From Escherichia phage vB_EcoM_VR20, in the sequence record NC_028894.1: 64,000 bases of DNA. The stretch is one strand, 5' to 3'. How positions within the stretch are numbered: the stretch's first letter is position 1; every line of letters starts with the position of its first letter. Position numbers and translations under genes: made by a program. This document shows positions 2 to 55,066 of the stretch, piece after piece. The notes beneath the pieces were generated by a model. That model did no database searches. It was given only the letters and a program-made list of their open reading frames with translations, and was not told the DNA's origin.

Positions 2-2236
2 TTATTCCTTATTGGCCGCTTCCACGGCCCTCATGATTTGAGCAACGTTCTGTACTTGTTCAGTTGACATGGCGTTACGGTTATATAAAAAGTGTGAAAC
101 AATCGGGTGATTCTTTTCAAATTCAAAAACCATTTTATCGCTTGTTACCGAAGCGTTTTTGGTCAGGTCGTCATAAATCTTATTACAAAGGACCAATGTT
201 TCCTGCATGGTCTTATCAACCGTTCCACTGTTATATGCGTTATAAGCAAAGAACTTATTGAACTGCATTAGTTCGGCATAGTCGGTGTTCACATCTTTCT
301 GAACATCTTTTGCATAAAAATACTTGAACATAAAATTCAATTCTGCATATTCAGACAGGATAGGAATATAATAACGCGAACGGCTTGAAGCAGCAATGTA
401 CTGGTCCGCATCAACTGAATCAATCAATTCCACATAACGATTGACTGCAGCTTCAATCAGACAATCACACTGCGCCAGCTTGGTAACCTTTTTCTGAAGC
501 TGTGGACGAATAACACAGAATTCATTGATTTCCAACAGATTCGCCAGTTTGCACAATGTCTGGGTCCCGAAGGTCGTGGTGCCATATTCTTGATTCAACG
601 GGGAAATGCTACTGCGGTTAATGAATACAGCATAACCATCGATTTCCTCTGCATCAGCTGCACATGTAAATTCTTCAACAGACTGCCAGCGACCATTGGT
701 TTTAGTCCAACGAATCACCGATGGAGTCTTTGACTTAACACGCTCTTTCGGGTCCGCAACCGGAATCCAGTCTTTTACAAGAGCAGTCAGTTCAGATGTA
801 CGATAGATATTAACTGTATCGCCTTTAAATCGTTCTTGAAGTTGAACCATCAGACGTGTTTGAATTTCGCTGGTTGGGTCAACGAACAATAGACTACTAC
901 CCTGCACAGTCGGAACTTTACCAGATGCTTTGAGCTTTTTGGCTTTCGCGCTGGTGTCATACAGCATTGAACTGATACCACGAATCATCGCAATTCGCCC
1001 TTTAGCATCGTCAATAACAATATTCAAGGTATCATTATGAATACCAAACATGCTTGTCAGGCTTGCAGTATTCGTGTTCGAGCTTGAGTTACGCAGACGT
1101 TTCAGACGGGTAGTGCTATAGATATCATAGACAACCCCGGCATTAATAAGGTCTTTGTCCAGCTCGAACATTTCGTACATCTGGTTAAAAGTCAGTTGTG
1201 ATTTTGTAAATTTCGTTTCAGCATTACGAGCTTTCAGAAAATTACGAGCTTCATAATTCAAACTCTGCAATTCGCGATACGTATGGCGGATACATTCTGA
1301 TTCCTGCCATTTCTTACAATCATCTTCCATGACCTTCTTATCAAGCGATTCAATACGTTCAACGATATTTGCGACCGTACGTTTGTCCAGTGATAATGCT
1401 TCGCGAGAAGGCGCAATATCCAACGAACCCATCGGGAACTTAATAAAGACAACATCATTTTTGGCAGTCATCCAGGTTTTCTTTGTATAACCGTCACCAA
1501 TCGGATAAACAATACCGCCGTAAATTGCATAAAGTCCATAACGTTCTGGGCTGCTATAATCAATACGCGCTGGAGCATAATAATCATCAAATTCTGGGAA
1601 GTAATTAATTTCGCCCACGCCTTGTACTTCAGCTAGCCCAGCAAATGGACGCATGATATATGCAATCTCGTAGCGGAACTTACCAAAATCATTACTATCG
1701 ACCGGGACAACAACTTCAATCCCTGTACGGTCGCCAGGTTTCATTGGTTCGCTAAAGGTTGGTTTAATCTGTGGACCATCGCCGTCCATATAAGCGACAT
1801 AACCATTAACTTGACCATCATGATATGAAATCAGGCTAAACGTCTCTGTATAACTGAACGGAGATTTAGAACCCAGACCAAAGCCACCAATAAAATCATT
1901 GGATTCAGCCTTGGATGATGCAAAGAAACTGTTATACAGACCTGGAGTGTTTTCATCACCACGAATCTGGAAATCACTCATACCTGGACCAAAGTCACGA
2001 CACACAAAACGTGGGTCCAGTTCACCAGGAGCTTGAACAATGAATTTATCCTGACAGCCATTGAGCATATGAGCATCAATCATATTGGTAATCAGCTCAC
2101 GGACAACTGCGCGCACCTTGTTTGTATAAAGGTCGCTGGTCAGAATCTTAAACACCTTCGGAGATGCCTGGATTGTGAATGCTGATGCCTTGGCACCATT
2201 ACCAAGGATTGTTTCCTTTTCAGTTTCTAAAATCAT
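2..2236 (-). CDS. rIIA: rIIA membrane-associated protein with N-terminal GHKL-type ATPase-like region (744 aa)
   Basis: Long ORF; N-terminal ITNMIDAH and GGFGLGSKSPF ATPase-like motifs; size and position (left genome end, downstream of topoisomerase gene) match T4 rIIA. Confidence 0.85.
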   Translation of the reverse strand: MILETEKETILGNGAKASAFTIQASPKVFKILTSDLYTNKVRAVVRELITNMIDAHMLNGCQDKFIVQAPGELDPRFVCRDFGPGMSDFQIRGDENTPGLYNSFFASSKAESNDFIGGFGLGSKSPFSYTETFSLISYHDGQVNGYVAYMDGDGPQIKPTFSEPMKPGDRTGIEVVVPVDSNDFGKFRYEIAYIMRPFAGLAEVQGVGEINYFPEFDDYYAPARIDYSSPERYGLYAIYGGIVYPIGDGYTKKTWMTAKNDVVFIKFPMGSLDIAPSREALSLDKRTVANIVERIESLDKKVMEDDCKKWQESECIRHTYRELQSLNYEARNFLKARNAETKFTKSQLTFNQMYEMFELDKDLINAGVVYDIYSTTRLKRLRNSSSNTNTASLTSMFGIHNDTLNIVIDDAKGRIAMIRGISSMLYDTSAKAKKLKASGKVPTVQGSSLLFVDPTSEIQTRLMVQLQERFKGDTVNIYRTSELTALVKDWIPVADPKERVKSKTPSVIRWTKTNGRWQSVEEFTCAADAEEIDGYAVFINRSSISPLNQEYGTTTFGTQTLCKLANLLEINEFCVIRPQLQKKVTKLAQCDCLIEAAVNRYVELIDSVDADQYIAASSRSRYYIPILSEYAELNFMFKYFYAKDVQKDVNTDYAELMQFNKFFAYNAYNSGTVDKTMQETLVLCNKIYDDLTKNASVTSDKMVFEFEKNHPIVSHFLYNRNAMSTEQVQNVAQIMRAVEAANKE

Positions 2237-2243
2237 GTTTTTC

Positions 2244-2453
2244 TCACTTTATGTTACGTTTGATTAATTCTGCAACTTCAAGAAGTTCATCCTTTGTTGC
2301 GGTGTCTGAAGCTATTTTAATACGGATTTCTTTGAAGCGTTCTTTAAACTCTTCAGCTTCTCTTATATCAAAAAATCGTTGGATAACGCGGTATTCTTTA
2401 TGGACAGCTTTATCAAACAGTTCCATATTAACTTTGAAGTTCGTCATTTCCAA
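2244..2453 (-). CDS. small hypothetical protein at the rIIA.1 position
   Basis: 69-aa ORF, codirectional and tightly packed with rIIA. Confidence 0.4.
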   Translation of the reverse strand: MEMTNFKVNMELFDKAVHKEYRVIQRFFDIREAEEFKERFKEIRIKIASDTATKDELLEVAELIKRNIK

Positions 2454-2712
2454 TCTCCTGTAATATTTTTCTCATACTACGCATGGTAGCTTTATGTTCT
2501 TGGTCATGGTATATCAATGCAAGGAGTGCTTCAATTCGCTCCTCAGGGACCTTCTCGCCAGCCTTAATGCTCATGGCTGTTGTTCTTACAGCTAACAAGT
2601 AACTTCGCTTCCTGTCGCTATCTGGGAGCTCCTGTACCTTCCTCAGGCCTGCTTCCATGATACAGCGTGCAACATTCTGCAGATTAACTAAACTTCCGTC
2701 AGACATAATCAT
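2428..2712 (-). CDS. hypothetical protein
   Basis: 94-aa ORF, codirectional, short overlap with downstream gene. Confidence 0.4.
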   Translation of the reverse strand: MIMSDGSLVNLQNVARCIMEAGLRKVQELPDSDRKRSYLLAVRTTAMSIKAGEKVPEERIEALLALIYHDQEHKATMRSMRKILQEIGNDELQS

Positions 2713-2760
2713 ATTTTCACCTCAAAGACATATTAACACAATTTTTGTGGCTTGTACATA

Positions 2761-2785
2761 ATAAAAAGGTCTCCCGAAGGAGACC
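2761..2785 (-). terminator. stem-loop terminator, GGTCTCC-UUCG-GGAGACC followed by U-run on minus strand
   Basis: Perfect 7-bp stem with UUCG tetraloop then T-run, directly after the stop of the 2791..2979 ORF. Confidence 0.6.
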
Positions 2786-2790
2786 AAATT

Positions 2791-2979
2791 TTATTCTACT
2801 TTATAGACCTGACCATACGCCATGAAAGTTTCACCTTCCCAGGTTTCGCATGTGATTGTTACAAATTCTGCAAACAAAGGTTTTTTCTCTGCCCAGAGAA
2901 AACCATATTCACCGGTAGCGAGTGTAATCCAGTATTTAGTCATATTGTCTCCTAGTAGAGGGAGAATATTCTCCCACAT
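2791..2979 (-). CDS. small hypothetical protein
   Basis: 62-aa ORF between topoisomerase gene and terminator hairpin. Confidence 0.35.
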   Translation of the reverse strand: MWENILPLLGDNMTKYWITLATGEYGFLWAEKKPLFAEFVTITCETWEGETFMAYGQVYKVE

Positions 2980-2983
2980 CTAT

Positions 2984-4816
2984 TTATAGCGTCGCATTCA
3001 TCCAATCTTTACGCTGCTGGGAATCTTTACCGAATAGCATTTCGAACAGTTCTTTCCAGTTGTCGGGCAATTGAACAACTTCGAATACCGGTTCGAGCAA
3101 TACACGTTTATACTCGGAATCTTCCAGAGAGCCAAGCCCCTTGATATATCGGATGGTGTGCTTCGGAAGTTTATCCTTAGCTTCTTCATAATCAGGAAGA
3201 GAATAGAACCATTCTTGTTTATCTTTGAGCTGCGCAATAATAACAGGAGTTTTCACAAAGCGAATTCGTCCTTCATGGAACAGCTCTGGCCAGTTACTGA
3301 AAAACGCCAATAATGATGGATAGATACTACCGACGCCATCCACATCCGCATCTGTCATGATAGCAATGTTTCGGTAATTCATATTCTCGGCCGGTTGCCC
3401 AATCGTTAACCCAGTAATTGCACACACATCAAAGGCTTCAGCGTTCTTCATAACGTCAACAGCTTTCAAACCCCATGTGTTTTTAAACTTACCACGTAAC
3501 GGATAAGCACCTTGCAATTCACGGTCGCGAACCTTGATAAATGGACCCGTTGCAGAATCCCCTTCGGTCAGGAACAAAGTCGTTTCCAGTTTGTCATTGC
3601 CCCATTCGTTGGCCTTGATGTGTTTCTGTACCTTGGCCTTCGAAGCTTTCTTATTCGCCTTAGTCTCTGCAGCTTTCTCTGCCGCCAATTTACGAGCTAA
3701 TGCAGCTTCGACAATCGGCATAATCAGCGATTCATTTTTCAGAATAGCTTGTGCGATTTTCTTGGCATCAATCTTAATGTGATTTCGAATTTCACCAGCC
3801 GGGGAAGTCAATCGTTCCTTGGTCTGGGAATCAAATCGCATATTGCTCATATCGCGGATGAACATAAGCATGGTGAGGCATTCTTTAACTCGTGCCTTGG
3901 TCACCTCGATACCTTTGTATTTGCGCTTAATGGCTGGTTGGAGGTGTTCACAGATATCATCCATAACACATTCAACGTGGTGCCCACCATTCTTTGTATG
4001 GATGTTGTTAACATAAGTCAACTGACGGAAACCGTCTGGGCTGGTCGTGAAAGCCATTGATACCGTATCCGTTTCCTGGATAACAACTTCAGTCCCGAAT
4101 TGTTTGGAGAACTTCTTGAAGTTGCCATCAACCTTTTTACCATTAAAGGTGAACTGAATATCCGGGTAAACAACCGCAAGAGTCTGCAGACGGTCCAATG
4201 TAATATCCAGATAAATCTGGGACAAACTATTTTCTTCGAAGTGGCTAAAGTCCGGAACAAAGATAACAGTTGTGCCTTTACCCTTAGATTTCTTGGTAGA
4301 CCAACCTTTGTTTTCCATACCGTTGGAGCAGTTAACAGTAATTTCATTTACACCATCAGCGGTAATCCCTGTAAACAATACAGAGAAAATATTGGTCAGA
4401 GAAGACCCGACGCCATTCATCCCACCGGTTTTACGTTCAGCATCATCACCGAAGTTGCCCCCAGCTTTTGGAATAGTCCACGCTGCAACTGGCCCAGGGA
4501 TTTGTTCACCGCTTTGGTCGACAACCATTGCCTGCGGAATACCACGACCATTATCAGAAACTGAAATCTGATTATCTTTAATTTGAACATCAATTTTATT
4601 GGCAAATTTAAAACTGGTGCGAATTGCTTCATCAACAGAGTTATCGATAATTTCATCAATCAGTTTTACAATACCAGGAACATAGCTTACGGACTTATAT
4701 TCACCAAACAAGAATCGCTCATGCGCTTCATTTGAACTGGAACCAATATACATCCCGGAACGTTTTTTGATATGCTCGACGTCCGAGAGTACTTTAATTT
4801 CATTATTAATCATCAT
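2984..4816 (-). CDS. 39: DNA topoisomerase II large subunit, fused 39+60 type (GyrB-like ATPase plus Toprim)
   Basis: 610-aa ORF; GHKL ATPase motifs (DNSVDEAI, GGHHVECV region) and Toprim-like LTEGDSA and MTDADVDG motifs; T4 gene 39 position. Confidence 0.9.
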   Translation of the reverse strand: MMINNEIKVLSDVEHIKKRSGMYIGSSSNEAHERFLFGEYKSVSYVPGIVKLIDEIIDNSVDEAIRTSFKFANKIDVQIKDNQISVSDNGRGIPQAMVVDQSGEQIPGPVAAWTIPKAGGNFGDDAERKTGGMNGVGSSLTNIFSVLFTGITADGVNEITVNCSNGMENKGWSTKKSKGKGTTVIFVPDFSHFEENSLSQIYLDITLDRLQTLAVVYPDIQFTFNGKKVDGNFKKFSKQFGTEVVIQETDTVSMAFTTSPDGFRQLTYVNNIHTKNGGHHVECVMDDICEHLQPAIKRKYKGIEVTKARVKECLTMLMFIRDMSNMRFDSQTKERLTSPAGEIRNHIKIDAKKIAQAILKNESLIMPIVEAALARKLAAEKAAETKANKKASKAKVQKHIKANEWGNDKLETTLFLTEGDSATGPFIKVRDRELQGAYPLRGKFKNTWGLKAVDVMKNAEAFDVCAITGLTIGQPAENMNYRNIAIMTDADVDGVGSIYPSLLAFFSNWPELFHEGRIRFVKTPVIIAQLKDKQEWFYSLPDYEEAKDKLPKHTIRYIKGLGSLEDSEYKRVLLEPVFEVVQLPDNWKELFEMLFGKDSQQRKDWMNATL

Positions 4817-4861
4817 CTTTCCTCTTGTGTATGGAGGTATTATAAGTCACATATTTTAAAG

Positions 4862-4880
4862 CAAAAAGGCCCGAAGGCCT
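4862..4880 (-). terminator. stem-loop terminator, AGGCC-UUCG-GGCCU plus U-run
   Basis: Hairpin with UUCG loop and T-run overlapping the stop of the lipoprotein gene. Confidence 0.55.
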
Positions 4881-5140
4881 TATTCAAATCGAATGGTTGA
4901 ATTCTTGAACAACAATCCAGAACAAACAGTTCCTTTGACCTGTTTACCGGTCGGACCCACTGCTGTAAAACCAGTACGTTGGAAGTCATCTTCAGAACAC
5001 CCAAACAAACTATACCCAGTGATTTGGATTTGCTCAAAACCATTGGCATTCAAAACCTTAGTAGCATTATCGGCGTCAGTGCACCCGACCAGAGAAACGG
5101 CAAGAACCAGTGCAGCAATAGAACGATTTACGTATTTCAT
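4880..5140 (-). CDS. putative lipoprotein
   Basis: 86-aa ORF with signal peptide ending in lipobox-like LVGC. Confidence 0.5.
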   Translation of the reverse strand: MKYVNRSIAALVLAVSLVGCTDADNATKVLNANGFEQIQITGYSLFGCSEDDFQRTGFTAVGPTGKQVKGTVCSGLLFKNSTIRFE

Positions 5141-5146
5141 AATTTC

Positions 5147-5320
5147 TCACTTAAGCAGGTCGTAGAACCCGCCATTAACATGTTTAGGAGCAGAGACTAA
5201 CCGAACAGCCAGCCGATGGCAATCAGGACAAACATCAGTATCTCTTTCAGAGATTTTCTTGATTTTTTCGTATTCTTTCGCACAGTCTTCAGATTGGCAT
5301 TTGTAATCATAAAGTGGCAT
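5147..5320 (-). CDS. small zinc-ribbon protein (CxxC...CxxC), not in the ORF track
   Basis: Hand translation of minus strand gives MPLYDYKCQSEDCAKEYEKIKKISERDTDVCPDCHRLAVRLVSAPKHVNGGFYDLLK; two CxxC pairs. Confidence 0.4.
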   Translation of the reverse strand: MPLYDYKCQSEDCAKEYEKIKKISERDTDVCPDCHRLAVRLVSAPKHVNGGFYDLLK

Positions 5321-5327
5321 CTCTAAA

Positions 5328-5687
5328 TTATTCCTTAAAGTGTGCTTTCAACATCTGGAAAACTGACCAGGCTTCTTCATTATTACTAATGGTGATTTTA
5401 GTCAATGGGAATGCAGTGATTTCTGGAGCTTCAGTTTCTTCATCGCCGTCATCTTTTTCTTCTTCAAAGAAACGACGTTCATCTTCCTTTATGAATAGTT
5501 TCTCTATTCCACCGGTCGAAAATTCTATCCGATATACATCACCACCTTCAATTCCGACTGGTCTAAATCCTTCACCATTGATTATAGCATCAGCTATATT
5601 ATCATTATCCGTGCATAACAAACGGAATCTGCTTTCAGCAACATTATCTTTAAAATAATACCATTTATCAGTTTCAAATTTAGACAT
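5328..5687 (-). CDS. hypothetical acidic protein (start trimmed to MSKFETDKW)
   Basis: ORF 5328..5828 trimmed to an internal Met that abuts the upstream gene stop. Confidence 0.4.
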   Translation of the reverse strand: MSKFETDKWYYFKDNVAESRFRLLCTDNDNIADAIINGEGFRPVGIEGGDVYRIEFSTGGIEKLFIKEDERRFFEEEKDDGDEETEAPEITAFPLTKITISNNEEAWSVFQMLKAHFKE

Positions 5688-5904
5688 TATAAGTCTCCTT
5701 CCAAAAATCTGTACCATCTTCTGATTCTTCACGAAAAAGCGCATAGCTTGGTAGCTGTGCGTCTTTATTTTCATACACATAAATGATATCAGTTGTGCAA
5801 AGAAACTCATTGATGTTTTTCTTAACAATCACTTTATCACTTTCAGCAGTGTCCCAAAACTCTTCAGCGGTCAGGGAAGTGGTCACACAATCTTCATTGA
5901 ACAT
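5680..5904 (-). CDS. small hypothetical protein
   Basis: 74-aa ORF preceded by GAGGA-type ribosome-binding site. Confidence 0.4.
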   Translation of the reverse strand: MFNEDCVTTSLTAEEFWDTAESDKVIVKKNINEFLCTTDIIYVYENKDAQLPSYALFREESEDGTDFWKETYNV

Positions 5905-5952
5905 AATATTCTCCTCATTGATAGGGCAAAATTACCCTATCATTTTTATAAT

Positions 5953-6435
5953 TTATGCTTTTGCTGCGCCGCAATAATTAAAGATAAACTGCTCCGGGAC
6001 TACTTTATATGTTCCACGGAATACAATGTTGTAAAGCTTAACACCATCTTCAACCCACTGGTCTGTAATCCAACCTGCCATTTCTTTAGTTTCATATGCA
6101 TCGCCATACGGTTTAAATGGAACTGGAGTTATGAAACGAATACTTTTACCTAATTTCCATTTAAAATCAACACCAACATGAGACTGGTCAATGGTTTCAA
6201 CTTCTTCAACTACTGGAGCGATATATCCAGTAAATTCAGTTGATTCCAGGAATTTAGGATGTACATAAGCCAATTGAGTTTCAGTATGGCCATGTTTAGG
6301 AATAATACGCACTTTAACTTCTTTAATTCCACCTACTAAATTAGTGCGAAGACCCACAACCTCAACAAAACGCCCAGCAGCTTTAGAACGAGATTCTTTA
6401 GAAACACGTACAATATCACCAGCTTCAACTTTCAT
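5953..6435 (-). CDS. hypothetical protein sharing a C-terminal domain with the next gene
   Basis: 160-aa ORF; C-terminal GWITDQWVEDGVKLYNIVF...VVP also present in the 6512..7267 product. Confidence 0.5.
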   Translation of the reverse strand: MKVEAGDIVRVSKESRSKAAGRFVEVVGLRTNLVGGIKEVKVRIIPKHGHTETQLAYVHPKFLESTEFTGYIAPVVEEVETIDQSHVGVDFKWKLGKSIRFITPVPFKPYGDAYETKEMAGWITDQWVEDGVKLYNIVFRGTYKVVPEQFIFNYCGAAKA

Positions 6436-11046: not shown

Positions 11047-11661
11047 TTAGTTCAAAACAGTTAAATGCCAAACAGTATAAAGGTTATTCAATGGGTGTGT
11101 TTCAATCAAATCTACGCGAAGCGTAGTCCCAGCGGGAAACATAAACTCATCCTCATCATTAACCAGGTGTAAGTTTGACTTCCTGGTTGCTTCTGGATAT
11201 GCACCATTGAACTCCTCAGGAGGAGCACCACAAATCATTTTAAAGATTGCTTCCTGATAGTTATACGCATATGGTGCATTGTTTATGCAGAAAATATTCC
11301 TTGTGCCATAGAAACTGTATGATGCGAAATTTCTTGCAACCTGCCAGTCCCTGGAAAAACTCATCACACGGTTGAACTCAATTGTTGCACCAACATATCT
11401 GAAATCTTCCAGGTATTCCATAGTTTTCTTTGATATACCACGGAACAATGCCACCGGCGGTGCAGTATTCAGATTGTTGCGGATAATCCTGGTTAAGTCT
11501 TCTTGAATCAGGTCAGGTTTATTTTCCATACACTGCCAGAGTACCGATTGCTCTTCATCTGTATAAAGAGCATTAATCTCCGCTTGACATTGGTCACGAA
11601 AAGACTCACTAGAGGCAGCAGTGTCAATAATTCCATTCAAAACATCATCAGTGTACAGCAT
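11047..11661 (-). CDS. modA: ADP-ribosyltransferase of the ModA/ModB family (start trimmed to MLYTDD)
   Basis: R-S-EXE-type motifs: LFRG, SFSRD, DEDEFMFPAG; track ORF N-terminus reads through the promoter leader; symbol assigned by gene order only. Confidence 0.6.
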   Translation of the reverse strand: MLYTDDVLNGIIDTAASSESFRDQCQAEINALYTDEEQSVLWQCMENKPDLIQEDLTRIIRNNLNTAPPVALFRGISKKTMEYLEDFRYVGATIEFNRVMSFSRDWQVARNFASYSFYGTRNIFCINNAPYAYNYQEAIFKMICGAPPEEFNGAYPEATRKSNLHLVNDEDEFMFPAGTTLRVDLIETHPLNNLYTVWHLTVLN

Positions 11662-11705
11662 TTTATTATCCTCATCAGTAGTTGATAGGAACATCTTAAC
11701 GTGTC

Positions 11706-12266
11706 TTATTGTGCTTGTACACAGTCAAGAACATAATAATCATCAACAAATCCAGCATCAACCACGACAAATTTCTGGTCAACTGGAACAAACCATTCAA
11801 GCTCAGAATCAATCATGTCCATGTATTCTTCACGTCTTAACGTTGCCGCCTGTTCGGAACCAGAAGCAGTATTGAAGAATTCCAGTGGAACGTCAAGCGC
11901 GATTTTGCGCATAGCATCATGGTAACAAAAAGCTTTTGTATGATTCAATCTGATGATAGTCCTTGATACATATTCCATTGCAGCAAAATCCCTGGCAATA
12001 CCATAGTCTTCTGTAAAGGAGGTTATCCTTCCAAATTCAAAAGGTTGCATTGATTCTTTTGCTTCATCTAACAAATCAATCTCTTGCTGGGTAACACCAC
12101 GATACAAGACTGTATCGGGTACAGATAACCTTGACTTGATGATTGAGTTGACATTTGAATGTAAGGTCTTATCAACCTTTGATGTGCGGCATTCAAATAA
12201 TGAAGCTATCTCCATTTCACTAAATTTTAACTGGTTGGGTTCGGTATCAGATTTGATGATGTTCAT
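11706..12266 (-). CDS. modB: ADP-ribosyltransferase of the ModA/ModB family, paralog of the previous gene
   Basis: LYRG, TSFTED, SELEWFVP motifs; symbol assigned by gene order only. Confidence 0.6.
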   Translation of the reverse strand: MNIIKSDTEPNQLKFSEMEIASLFECRTSKVDKTLHSNVNSIIKSRLSVPDTVLYRGVTQQEIDLLDEAKESMQPFEFGRITSFTEDYGIARDFAAMEYVSRTIIRLNHTKAFCYHDAMRKIALDVPLEFFNTASGSEQAATLRREEYMDMIDSELEWFVPVDQKFVVVDAGFVDDYYVLDCVQAQ

Positions 12267-52745: not shown

Positions 52746-53318
52746 TCAGCTTGTCAATTCGAGCCAATGTTTCCTGCATAAAGATACGTACGATTCATTC
52801 CCACCGACTAACACTTGCTCGCCGTCCTTTACAGCAGCACCGTCGATTACTCGAGCGGTCATGGTTGCTTTCCGGCCGCAATGGCAGACGCCCTTTAATT
52901 CAACCAGTTTATCCGAAATAGCCAGAAGTCTGGCTGAACCGGGAAATAACTGACCCCGAAAATCTGTTCTTAGCCCGTAACACATAACGGGGATATTATA
53001 ATTATCAACCACTCGTGCTAACTGGTCAATTTGCTCTGGTAACAAAAATTGAGCTTCATCAACCAGGACACAATGGATATCCTTTTGAGACTCGGCCCAT
53101 TTATAGAATTCAAACAGGTTCATGTCGGCCGTTACCAGGTTTGCTTCCTGGCTAATACCAATACGTGATTTAATTTCAGATTCCGAGTCCCGATTATCAA
53201 TAACAGGTTTTAGCAAAAGCACACTCATTCCACGCTCTTTATAGGAATAAGCTGCAGTCAGCAATGAAGCTGTTTTGCCTGCATTCATTGCTGCGTAATG
53301 ATAAATTAAACTCGCCAT
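52746..53318 (-). CDS. tk: thymidine kinase
   Basis: 190 aa; P-loop NAGKTASL; Walker B LVDEAQF; C-terminal CxCG zinc site. Confidence 0.85.
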   Translation of the reverse strand: MASLIYHYAAMNAGKTASLLTAAYSYKERGMSVLLLKPVIDNRDSESEIKSRIGISQEANLVTADMNLFEFYKWAESQKDIHCVLVDEAQFLLPEQIDQLARVVDNYNIPVMCYGLRTDFRGQLFPGSARLLAISDKLVELKGVCHCGRKATMTARVIDGAAVKDGEQVLVGGNESYVSLCRKHWLELTS

Positions 53319-53327
53319 ATCACCTTC

Positions 53328-53513
53328 TTAAAGAGTATTCACATAAGCAATTAATTCGTTTTCTTTCTCATCAAACCGATTAGCAAATTCTTCCTGATGT
53401 TCGGCATCTATCGGGCCGTGTTCATCATAAAAAGCGTTCGCTTCCGTATGCTCGTCCAAAAGCTCATGGATAAGCTCAAACAATCTACTTTTCTGACTAA
53501 TACTTAAACTCAT
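53328..53513 (-). CDS. small hypothetical protein
   Basis: 61-aa ORF. Confidence 0.35.
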   Translation of the reverse strand: MSLSISQKSRLFELIHELLDEHTEANAFYDEHGPIDAEHQEEFANRFDEKENELIAYVNTL

Positions 53514-53716
53514 TTCGGTTCACCTTGTTTTACAAAGTCTGGATACGGTTGAAACCCGGAATAGAAACCAGCGCCTGCATGATTCACACACCCTTTATTA
53601 GAACAATAGCACCAATAATCAAAATCACATATCATTTCATCGTTGCATAAAGCAAAAACAACTGGCCATTTACACTTTTCACAGTGAGCATTTTTAAGAA
53701 TACTAGTTTGACTCAT
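53510..53716 (-). CDS. small Cys-rich hypothetical protein
   Basis: 68 aa with CEKC and several further Cys. Confidence 0.4.
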   Translation of the reverse strand: MSQTSILKNAHCEKCKWPVVFALCNDEMICDFDYWCYCSNKGCVNHAGAGFYSGFQPYPDFVKQGEPK

Positions 53717-54167
53717 AATCCACCACTATCAAATCAATGTCAGGAGTAAACATATCAATTAACCGGGAAACCTTATCCCAATCACCACCTGCAATACCAC
53801 AGCCAATCCTGGGAATATAAATCACGGGCTTGAACAAAAGTGATTCTGCTTGTCGATTTAATTCTATCATGCAATTTAATAAAGCACCATAATCCAGATT
53901 TGGACCCGGTTCATACTGGGTATAAAGGTTATAGCACATACCAAATCCAGTTGGCTTATGTTTAAAAACGATAGACATATCACCGAGTTTTTCTCGGGAA
54001 CCGTATTCAGTTGATGTTTTATCCATTTCTAAAATTTTTGGGTAAGCCTTTGCCAGTTGGCCAGCAACGCCTGACCCCATTGTATGGAAGCAGTTACAGC
54101 CATGAGCTATGATGTTTCCTTCGAGAAAGAGGGCGACGATATCGCCCTTAATATAGTTAACAATCAT
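53703..54167 (-). CDS. macrodomain protein (ADP-ribose binding or hydrolysing)
   Basis: 154 aa; GDIVAL...IAHGCNCFHTMGSGVAGQL and IPRIGCGIAGGDW fit macrodomain signature regions. Confidence 0.55.
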   Translation of the reverse strand: MIVNYIKGDIVALFLEGNIIAHGCNCFHTMGSGVAGQLAKAYPKILEMDKTSTEYGSREKLGDMSIVFKHKPTGFGMCYNLYTQYEPGPNLDYGALLNCMIELNRQAESLLFKPVIYIPRIGCGIAGGDWDKVSRLIDMFTPDIDLIVVDYESN

Positions 54168-54523
54168 TTAGAGTTCAATCCTCTGTTATAGGAATCGACT
54201 AACCTGTCAACCATACTGGTACAGGCCGCTTTATATTTGGCACTCGACAGAATACAATCCATTTCAAATAGTTTCTTTTCATATTTGTTAGATAAAGTAC
54301 TCTTTTTCATAAGAGTGTGTTCAACATCATTTTGACCGTCTTTATAGGCAGCAGTGAGTTTGGCACTGAACTGGATTATACAATCCACATTGCTTGATGC
54401 GCAATAATCTTTGGCCGTCCTCGTTGCATATTCTACGATGCTGTTGTTGTCGACGCTCTGTACTGAAGCTATTCCTCCCGTGCTGAATACTAACCCCATG
54501 GCTAAAGTTATGACTCTTACCAT
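54164..54523 (-). CDS. secreted hypothetical protein
   Basis: 119 aa with N-terminal signal peptide. Confidence 0.45.
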   Translation of the reverse strand: MVRVITLAMGLVFSTGGIASVQSVDNNSIVEYATRTAKDYCASSNVDCIIQFSAKLTAAYKDGQNDVEHTLMKKSTLSNKYEKKLFEMDCILSSAKYKAACTSMVDRLVDSYNRGLNSK

Positions 54524-55066
54524 TTAATCCACCATTTTTAATAGGCCTCGTGATTTTAAGTAGTTAGCTTTTTCTAGGACCTGCGAAGCATATGTATTTC
54601 CAGCTTTCACATTCCACCCTGCATTATATGATGATAGTGTTTTTCTTATGTCCCCCTTGTGAATGTTCAACCAATATGAAAGCTCAATATAGGCCCAGCG
54701 CGCGCTGTTTTCTCTCTTGCTTATCATCTTGATTATTTCTTTATCTGTCATTGTCCACCCAACCTGTTTTACACGCTCGCGTACGGTTGGAAGATAATTT
54801 TGGAATATACCATATGCATGATGCTTATCTTTATTTAATCCTGTATTAACACCAGCAGATGATTCCTGCCAGGTTAAACCAGCCATGATATATCCCAAAC
54901 CATTATGTTGGTGCGGATTTTCTTTGTACTTACCATTTTTCTGGAACTGTTCTCCAAACGCATAAGCATATTGAAGATTTTCCATCTGTTCATTACTGAA
55001 AGTAGGCTCTACGCTATGGGCAGACATACTAACTGTCAATAGTAAGGTGGCGATTACTTTTTTCAT
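54524..55066 (-). CDS. secreted lytic-transglycosylase-like protein
   Basis: 180 aa; signal peptide; GLTWQESSAG...AYGIFQ resembles the catalytic E-S and GxxQ motifs of the SLT domain. Confidence 0.5.
   Translation of the reverse strand: MKKVIATLLLTVSMSAHSVEPTFSNEQMENLQYAYAFGEQFQKNGKYKENPHQHNGLGYIMAGLTWQESSAGVNTGLNKDKHHAYGIFQNYLPTVRERVKQVGWTMTDKEIIKMISKRENSARWAYIELSYWLNIHKGDIRKTLSSYNAGWNVKAGNTYASQVLEKANYLKSRGLLKMVD

Follow-up and report, generated by a model that had tools for sequence, protein, structure and literature searches.

A tk.4/adfM-type macrodomain gene of Escherichia phage vB_EcoM_VR20 and its probable role against the DarTG2 defence

Described macrodomains and the DarTG2 defence

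Annotation of the tk.4 domain goes back about 20 years: when T4-like genomes were compared in 2006, an A1pp domain was described in tk.4 orthologues. A likely anti-DarTG2 role for the T4 gene followed in 2025. When T4 was subjected to transposon sequencing, tk.4 was the sole gene specifically depleted on a DarTG2 host (HIDEN-SEQ preprint, doi 10.1101/2025.11.20.689424). A clean tk.4 deletion sensitised T4 to DarTG2, and the gene, which is dispensable on plain E. coli K-12, was renamed adfM, for anti-DarT factor Macrodomain (doi 10.1101/2025.11.20.689424). The evidence was genetic only, with removal of ADP-ribose from DNA by T4 AdfM inferred from structural likeness to M. tuberculosis DarG (doi 10.1101/2025.11.20.689424). 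As earlier work had found T4 without adfA and adfN to be still DarTG2-resistant, the tk.4 result fills a gap. AdfA and AdfB of phages are direct DarT inhibitors, and PhiKZ gp104, independently named AdfM, has been shown biochemically to remove the ADP-ribose of DarT2 from DNA (Cell Rep 2026, PMC13309987).

According to the SCO6735 paper, this Streptomyces coelicolor macrodomain outpaces both DarG and TARG1 in cleaving thymidine-linked ADP-ribose on ssDNA, leaves the guanosine-linked form uncleaved, and can rescue E. coli from DarT. Activity was abolished in the Q85A variant and almost entirely lost in N27S; the authors propose a water-mediated mechanism in which the Gln holds the distal ribose in position. 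The same paper found the catalytically dead variants SCO6735 Q85A, DarG K80A and TARG1 K84A to still inhibit DarT, SCO6735 being the strongest.

A phage macrodomain with a different described activity is Adpp (gp137) of Vibrio phage Gary, which converts ADPR-1''-phosphate to ADP-ribose as determined by LC-MS (doi 10.64898/2026.01.28.702374). Adpp is encoded between Adps and Namat in the NARP1-AP operon, and its reaction allows NAD+ to be rebuilt by NARP1 in the face of the aRES defence, all three genes being required (doi 10.64898/2026.01.28.702374).

The macrodomain gene and its relationship to T4 tk.4

The window analysed here is a stretch of 64,000 nucleotides from Escherichia phage vB_EcoM_VR20 (NC_028894.1). 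The gene at 53703..54167 is already known, being the usual tk.4/adfM gene at the usual place in a T4-like genome. It lies on the minus strand, for which the original prediction had named no strand, and comprises an ATG-to-stop ORF, stop included, encoding 154 aa; a plus-strand reading of the same interval was rejected, the frame being full of stops. The assignment as a tk.4/adfM-type macrodomain CDS draws on the ORF itself, a Pfam match, identity to T4 Tk.4 and the fold of an AlphaFold2 model.

Directly upstream is a homologue of vs, the valyl-tRNA synthetase modifier (54164..54523, minus strand; PHROG 1256, 1.1e-32), the stop of which overlaps the macrodomain start in a 4-nt ATGA, an overlap also present in T4. 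Directly downstream is a tk.3-like zinc-binding ORF of 68 aa (53510..53716, minus strand; Pfam PF23895, 1.3e-28; annotated tk.3 in VR7), the first 14 nt of which overlap the 3' end of the macrodomain gene, and tk, encoding thymidine kinase (52746..53318, minus strand; Pfam TK, 4.5e-58), served as a synteny anchor. The window order regB, vs.1, vs, macrodomain, tk.3-like ORF, DUF7438 ORF and tk is that of T4. Judged from the overlaps, the protein would be translated from a vs-tk.4-tk.3 block, and the ATGA overlap makes translational coupling to vs plausible. Scans for promoters and terminators around the macrodomain gene gave no usable signal, as counts were not above those in shuffled sequence.

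The two small conserved ORFs downstream of the macrodomain gene, of 68 and 61 aa (53328-53716, minus strand), overlap each other by 4 nt, the 61-aa DUF7438 ORF being tk.2-like. Since AdfN is reported to need a T4 co-factor (AdfN paper), these small ORFs, being tightly coupled to the macrodomain gene, may be candidate AdfM helpers. On the other side of vs, a Vs.1 homologue of 180 aa (54524-55066, minus strand) matched PHROG 600 and had no Pfam match at E<=0.01; it has a signal-like hydrophobic stretch at the N-terminus, and its relatives carry the annotation SLT or lytic transglycosylase domain protein.

The macrodomain assignment of the 53703-54167 product is statistically solid. The hallmarks named in the original prediction, GDIVAL...HGCNCFHTMGSGVAGQL and IPRIGCGIAGGDW, were both found in the 154-aa product of exactly this ORF, and the profile search and structure prediction that it had proposed agreed with it. 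Pfam PF01661 (Macro) matched with E=4.8e-8 and 33.4 bits, above the gathering cut-off of 22, over profile positions 2-117 of 118 (116/118 covered), and PHROG 335 matched with 1.6e-69. An AlphaFold2 model (pLDDT 95.5, pTM 0.90), computed from an alignment without the T4 sequence, has the macro fold, with a predicted three-layer alpha/beta/alpha arrangement around a central mixed sheet.

When compared to T4, the protein was found to share 59% identity over its full length with Tk.4 (E=5e-71), which is of equal length and annotated as 'contains A1pp phosphatase motif'. The gene also occupies the same slot as in T4, between vs and tk.3 in the tk-regB block, and is the syntenic orthologue of T4 tk.4 (adfM). 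The earlier remark that no macrodomain was known at this position in T4 was in error, as T4 Tk.4 sits at exactly the same syntenic position, in the same order and with the same ATGA overlap. T4 Tk.4 shares every family-invariant residue with the window protein (HGCNC, N80, Q84 and the short post-Gln loop), whereas 41% of residues differ, and the diphosphate loop has the sequence IGCGIAGG in one (window protein) and IGAGIGKG in the other (T4 Tk.4).

Using tblastn, homologues of the macrodomain were found in 2780 phage records, the family reaching many Pseudomonas, Vibrio, Acinetobacter and Aeromonas phages. The closest match was Escherichia virus TH15 (99.4% identity), and some 300 records, Sf23 and teqskov among them, showed 90-95% identity. 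The DNA surrounding the gene is 91-95% identical to that of Gaprivervirus VR7 and SP18; both phages carry the gene under the annotation tk.4. The window allele itself is about 91-92% identical in Tequatrovirus phages (Sf23, teqskov), with Gaprivervirus-like flanking DNA; an allele shared with Tequatrovirus inside such flanks suggests that the gene block containing the macrodomain may have been exchanged between the two genera. The window protein ends in ...DYESN (154 aa), while the roughly 92%-identical alleles of Sf23, VR7 and P0001 are 5 residues longer (159 aa; Sf23 ending in ...ESTLPASV), as seen by comparing 53703-54167 with the retrieved loci L002:3001-3480 and L003:3877-4356.

A neighbour-joining tree was constructed, a simple distance tree carrying no support values and reliable for coarse grouping only. 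The window protein grouped with Sf23 and P0001, with T4 Tk.4 as sister, in a short-loop clade and off the Adpp branch. Gary and KIT04 formed a separate branch, BT1257 branched next, and DarG together with PhiKZ gp104 made up another clade. Homologues on the second CHARACTERISED branch were found in Vibrio phage KIT04 (T5-like) and Acinetobacter Saclayvirus D22 at 32-36% identity. In the retrieved loci of KIT04 (3135-6173), D22 (940-4474) and Gary (1629-4659), the macrodomain gene is flanked by, or adjacent to, Prs-like (Adps) and Nampt-like (Namat) genes, and an RNA ligase is often encoded nearby; the phage families are unrelated and the arrangement matches the published NARP1-AP operon.

In a scan using one genome per species, 353 bacterial relatives of 34-42% identity were found that keep the HGCNC and YTQ motifs. 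Genomic context was analysed for 69 of the top 80 loci by similarity, a biased sample, and neither a DarT-like neighbour nor one conserved across taxa was found in these 69. The contexts were instead lineage-specific and of a housekeeping kind (rpoC, ileS-lspA, argC). In Ruegeria the gene is downstream of rpoB/rpoC and upstream of rpsL-rpsG-fusA, in Hyphomicrobiaceae it is downstream of ileS and upstream of lspA, and in Desulfobacter it adjoins argC; the loop of most bacterial relatives is 3 residues longer than in T4-type phage proteins. Because these relatives are, like SCO6735, stand-alone genes, we argue that housekeeping macrodomains, rather than a DarG antitoxin, were the source of the phage Tk.4 family.

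Active-site residues, proposed function and alternatives

The active-site residues were assigned from conservation and profile alignments (all coordinates on the minus strand). The H22-G-C-N25-C26 motif (54090..54104) is invariant in 120 of 122 phage and metagenome homologues, the remaining two being gapped. Both glycine-rich loops are present, the first ADP-ribose-binding loop being M30-G-S-G33 (MGSG, residues 30-33; 54069..54080), with M30 and G33 invariant, and the second (IGCGIAGG, residues 121-128) forming part of the diphosphate-binding loop P119-R-I-G-C-G-I-A-G-G128 (53784..53813), with P119, G122 and G124 invariant. In the N80-L-Y-T-Q84 motif (53916..53930), the residues Q84, N80 and Y82, at positions absent from the patterns that retrieved the bacterial set, are invariant in 191/191 homologues (122 from phages or metagenomes including T4 Tk.4, and 69 bacterial). 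The spacing from Q84 to Y93 is 8 residues in 93/122 phage homologues.

A profile-profile alignment of 61 family members with a DarG-type set (Mtb DarG, Taq DarG, PhiKZ gp104 and 7omu) placed N80-L-Y-T-Q84 opposite N-F-P-T-K of DarG (98.5% probability), and hhalign of the family against BT_1257 placed Q84 on Gln, N25 on N27 and H22 on H24 (98.8% probability). A phmmer pairing of Q84 with a Lys of the long BT1257 loop was replaced by this Gln-on-Gln alignment, which contains a 6-residue deletion. The mapping of SCO6735 residues was routed via BT_1257, which is 54% identical to SCO6735 according to the SCO6735 paper, and the TARG1 sequence was verified against PDB 2lgr. Q84 thereby falls where DarG (K80) and TARG1 (K84) have their catalytic Lys and where SCO6735 has the essential Gln85. 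The equivalents of H22 are SCO6735 H24 and Poa1p H23, and those of N25 are SCO6735 N27 and the conserved Asn of DarG (Asn27-equivalent; N23 in PhiKZ AdfM). S32, which is Ala or Ser across the T4-type clade, is found at the SCO6735 K34 / DarG Lys position, and A126 sits at that of TARG1 D125. By its residues, the window protein is classified as a Gln-type macrodomain and not, in detail, as a DarG-type enzyme.

With fold, orthology, synteny and active-site make-up established in this analysis, we consider it probable that the orthologue of T4 tk.4 is a Q84/N25 dT-ADPr hydrolase removing the DarT2 mark from phage ssDNA. The product is a macrodomain that consists of one domain, stands alone and belongs to the ALC1-like (TARG1/DarG/SCO6735/Poa1p) class; it would bind the ADP-ribose moiety via the MGSG and IGCGIAGG loops and hydrolyse the N-glycosidic bond at C1'' of the distal ribose. 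Its likeliest physiological substrate would be N3-ADP-ribosyl-thymidine put on single-stranded phage DNA by DarT2, the host toxin of DarTG2. Catalysis would most likely follow the SCO6735 model, in which Q84, itself fixed by N25, sets the distal ribose in place for a water-mediated reaction, so that Gln chemistry would substitute for the lysine chemistry of DarG and TARG1, and removal of the ADP-ribose would restore phage DNA replication. We infer that the window protein and T4 Tk.4 themselves are probably dT-ADPr DNA glycohydrolases. The original prediction had also offered, as an alternative, that the macrodomain counters host ADP-ribosylating defences, and this fits the genetics of the T4 orthologue, tk.4 being the only T4 gene conditionally essential against DarTG2.

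Several points speak against this assignment. The dT-ADPr hydrolysis is putative, as is the T4 mechanism in the preprint; the extended basic mobile loop (K89/K93) and K34, the DNA-binding aids of SCO6735, are missing; and the specificity could differ from that of T4 Tk.4 at 59% identity. Furthermore, the activity of Gary Adpp, the sole biochemically assayed phage member of the wider family, is that of an ADPR-1''-phosphate phosphatase rather than a DNA hydrolase. Adpp has 38% identity to the window protein (E=6e-26; 35% to T4 Tk.4) and shares its HxCNC motif and Gln, which would suit a protein that is mainly a small-molecule hydrolase, recycling soluble products of NAD-depleting defences (aRES) as an ADPR-1''-phosphate phosphatase like Poa1p and Adpp and not acting on DNA. 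The label 'phosphatase' given by PHROG 335 and by GenBank annotators, and the presence of Poa1p among the best sequence and structure matches, with H23 and S30 (residues taken from the PDB mutant names H23A, S30A and F152A) corresponding to H22 and T29, point the same way. The Adpp phenotype, however, required Adps and Namat, homologues of which were not found in the 64-kb window; Namat homologues occur in 189 Escherichia phage records, none of those sampled being T4-like, and the window protein belongs to the T4 Tk.4 clade, whose only known phenotype is DarTG2 resistance. We therefore regard a mainly phosphatase role as unlikely and, because both activities involve a 1''-linked leaving group, possibly as a secondary activity rather than a true rival. 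A related and rather doubtful possibility is that the T4-type Tk.4 clade is a broad 1''-carbon ADP-ribose eraser of housekeeping rather than DarG origin, acting on both the DarT2 thymidine mark and soluble ADPR-1''-phosphate; if so, a single gene would blunt several ADP-ribose- or NAD-based defences. Protection might also be achieved by binding and inhibiting DarT2, or by reading ADP-ribosylated DNA or protein, as dead mutants of SCO6735 (Q85A), DarG (K80A) and TARG1 (K84A) retain DarT inhibition and phage AdfA and AdfB inhibit DarT directly. Yet the window protein lacks the C-terminal DarT-binding domain of DarG, and its SCO6735-type catalytic residues (Gln, Asn, His and the Gly loops) are invariant over the 191 homologues, including stand-alone bacterial genes; as they are invariant even where no DarT gene is adjacent, an enzyme fits better than a toxin-specific binder, and we hold protection without catalysis to be quite unlikely.

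The window also encodes two Mod-type ADP-ribosyltransferase paralogues (11047-11694 and 11706-12266, minus strand), confirming what had been predicted for 11047-12266: both match PHROG 832 'RNA polymerase ADP-ribosylase' (9e-39 and 2e-28) and show, by tblastn, about 30-36% identity to T4-like phage genes carrying the annotation modA or modB. The paralogues are highly diverged from T4 ModA/ModB, and no Pfam ART match was significant for them, the best being DRAT at 16.6 bits, below the cut-off. Their presence in the same genome, together with general remarks in the literature on co-occurrence of ARTs and macrodomains in phages, would favour the proposed reversible modification system, in which the macrodomain erases or reads the ADP-ribosylation (or RNAylation) made by ModA, ModB or Alt of the phage itself. 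Removal of ADP-ribose from arginine is, however, the job of ARH-type enzymes. The target of ModA is Arg265 of the RNA polymerase alpha subunits (review), whereas characterized ALC1-like macrodomains act on Glu/Asp-linked and thymidine-linked ADP-ribose (SCO6735 paper). About 42 kb also separates the macrodomain gene from the Mod genes, the two belonging to different transcription units with no common operon, and their distributions are unequal: 927-1011 phage records, nearly all from enterobacterial T4-like phages, contain Mod-type genes, as against 2780 for the macrodomain, a family also found in bacteria in housekeeping contexts. T4 tk.4 is, moreover, not required on plain E. coli K-12 (doi 10.1101/2025.11.20.689424). 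The proposed writer/eraser (or reader) pair with ModA/ModB is thus opposed by Arg specificity, genomic separation and distribution; a functional link between the Mod genes and the macrodomain is not supported by any evidence here, and we consider such pairing extremely improbable.

Comparison with characterized macrodomains

As a conserved accessory gene that is routine in T4-like phages, the gene carries little weight for the window itself, and the chemistry and possible dual specificity of the Gln-type T4 clade are questions for the whole family rather than for this window. With regard to phage therapy and host range, presence of the gene suggests resistance to DarTG2-carrying E. coli, although caution is warranted at 59% identity to T4 Tk.4.

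Among structures, human TARG1 (C6orf130/OARD1) was the top Foldseek match of the window model (E=2e-10, TM 0.74-0.81). Its loop is as short as that of the window protein and it, too, cleaves dT-ADPr DNA, but its catalytic dyad K84/D125 is replaced by Q84/A126. SCO6735 of Streptomyces coelicolor and BT_1257 of Bacteroides (PDB 5e3b and 2afc/2fg1) have Gln for the catalytic Lys together with Asn and His partners, as in the window protein; SCO6735 (5e3b) matched with 1.6e-7, and its gene stands alone, like those of the bacterial relatives of the window protein. The identity to SCO6735 and BT_1257 is only about 27-29%, however, and the mobile loop of SCO6735, which is around 5 residues longer than that of DarG and TARG1 and has K89 and K93 that aid DNA binding, is not extended or basic in the window protein (6-residue deletion compared to BT1257; both Lys missing). 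SCO6735 K34, a further aid to DNA binding, is Ser or Ala in the family. Gary Adpp differs from the T4-type clade in having MGRG, of the Adpp-type MG(R/K)G, and a loop seven residues longer, and Poa1p of yeast presumably has Ser and not Gln at the key position, its sequence having been verified in part.

DarG is more remote. The DarG proteins of T. aquaticus and M. tuberculosis, as well as PhiKZ gp104, carry FPTK with the catalytic Lys (K80 in TaqDarG), whereas the Tk.4-type family has YTQ, the Gln being opposite the Lys and invariant in the 191 homologues. DarG also has a C-terminal DarT-binding domain and adjoining darT; the 154-aa single-domain window protein has no such C-terminal domain, and no darT was found beside its gene, the neighbours being vs and the tk.3-like ORF. 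The NCBIfam DarG equivalog scored 29.5 bits against a cut-off of 250 and aligned over profile positions 2-138 of 338 only, and the PADLOC DarG model matched over positions 3-143 of 329. Filing the window protein with DarG, in line with the structural comparison in the HIDEN-SEQ preprint, was rejected, as the protein has neither the catalytic Lys nor the DarT-binding domain and its gene does not adjoin darT.

PhiKZ gp104 matches Mtb DarG (PDB 5m3i) with 9e-25 and shows only a marginal, 33-aa local similarity to the window protein. Since PhiKZ gp104 is of the DarG type with PTK, the name AdfM covers two macrodomain clades, the Gln-type of T4 Tk.4 and the Lys-type of PhiKZ gp104. This overlap in naming is one point of modest specialist value; the other is that T4-type AdfM, a macrodomain of the Gln type related to SCO6735, Poa1p and Adpp, is not a Lys enzyme like DarG.
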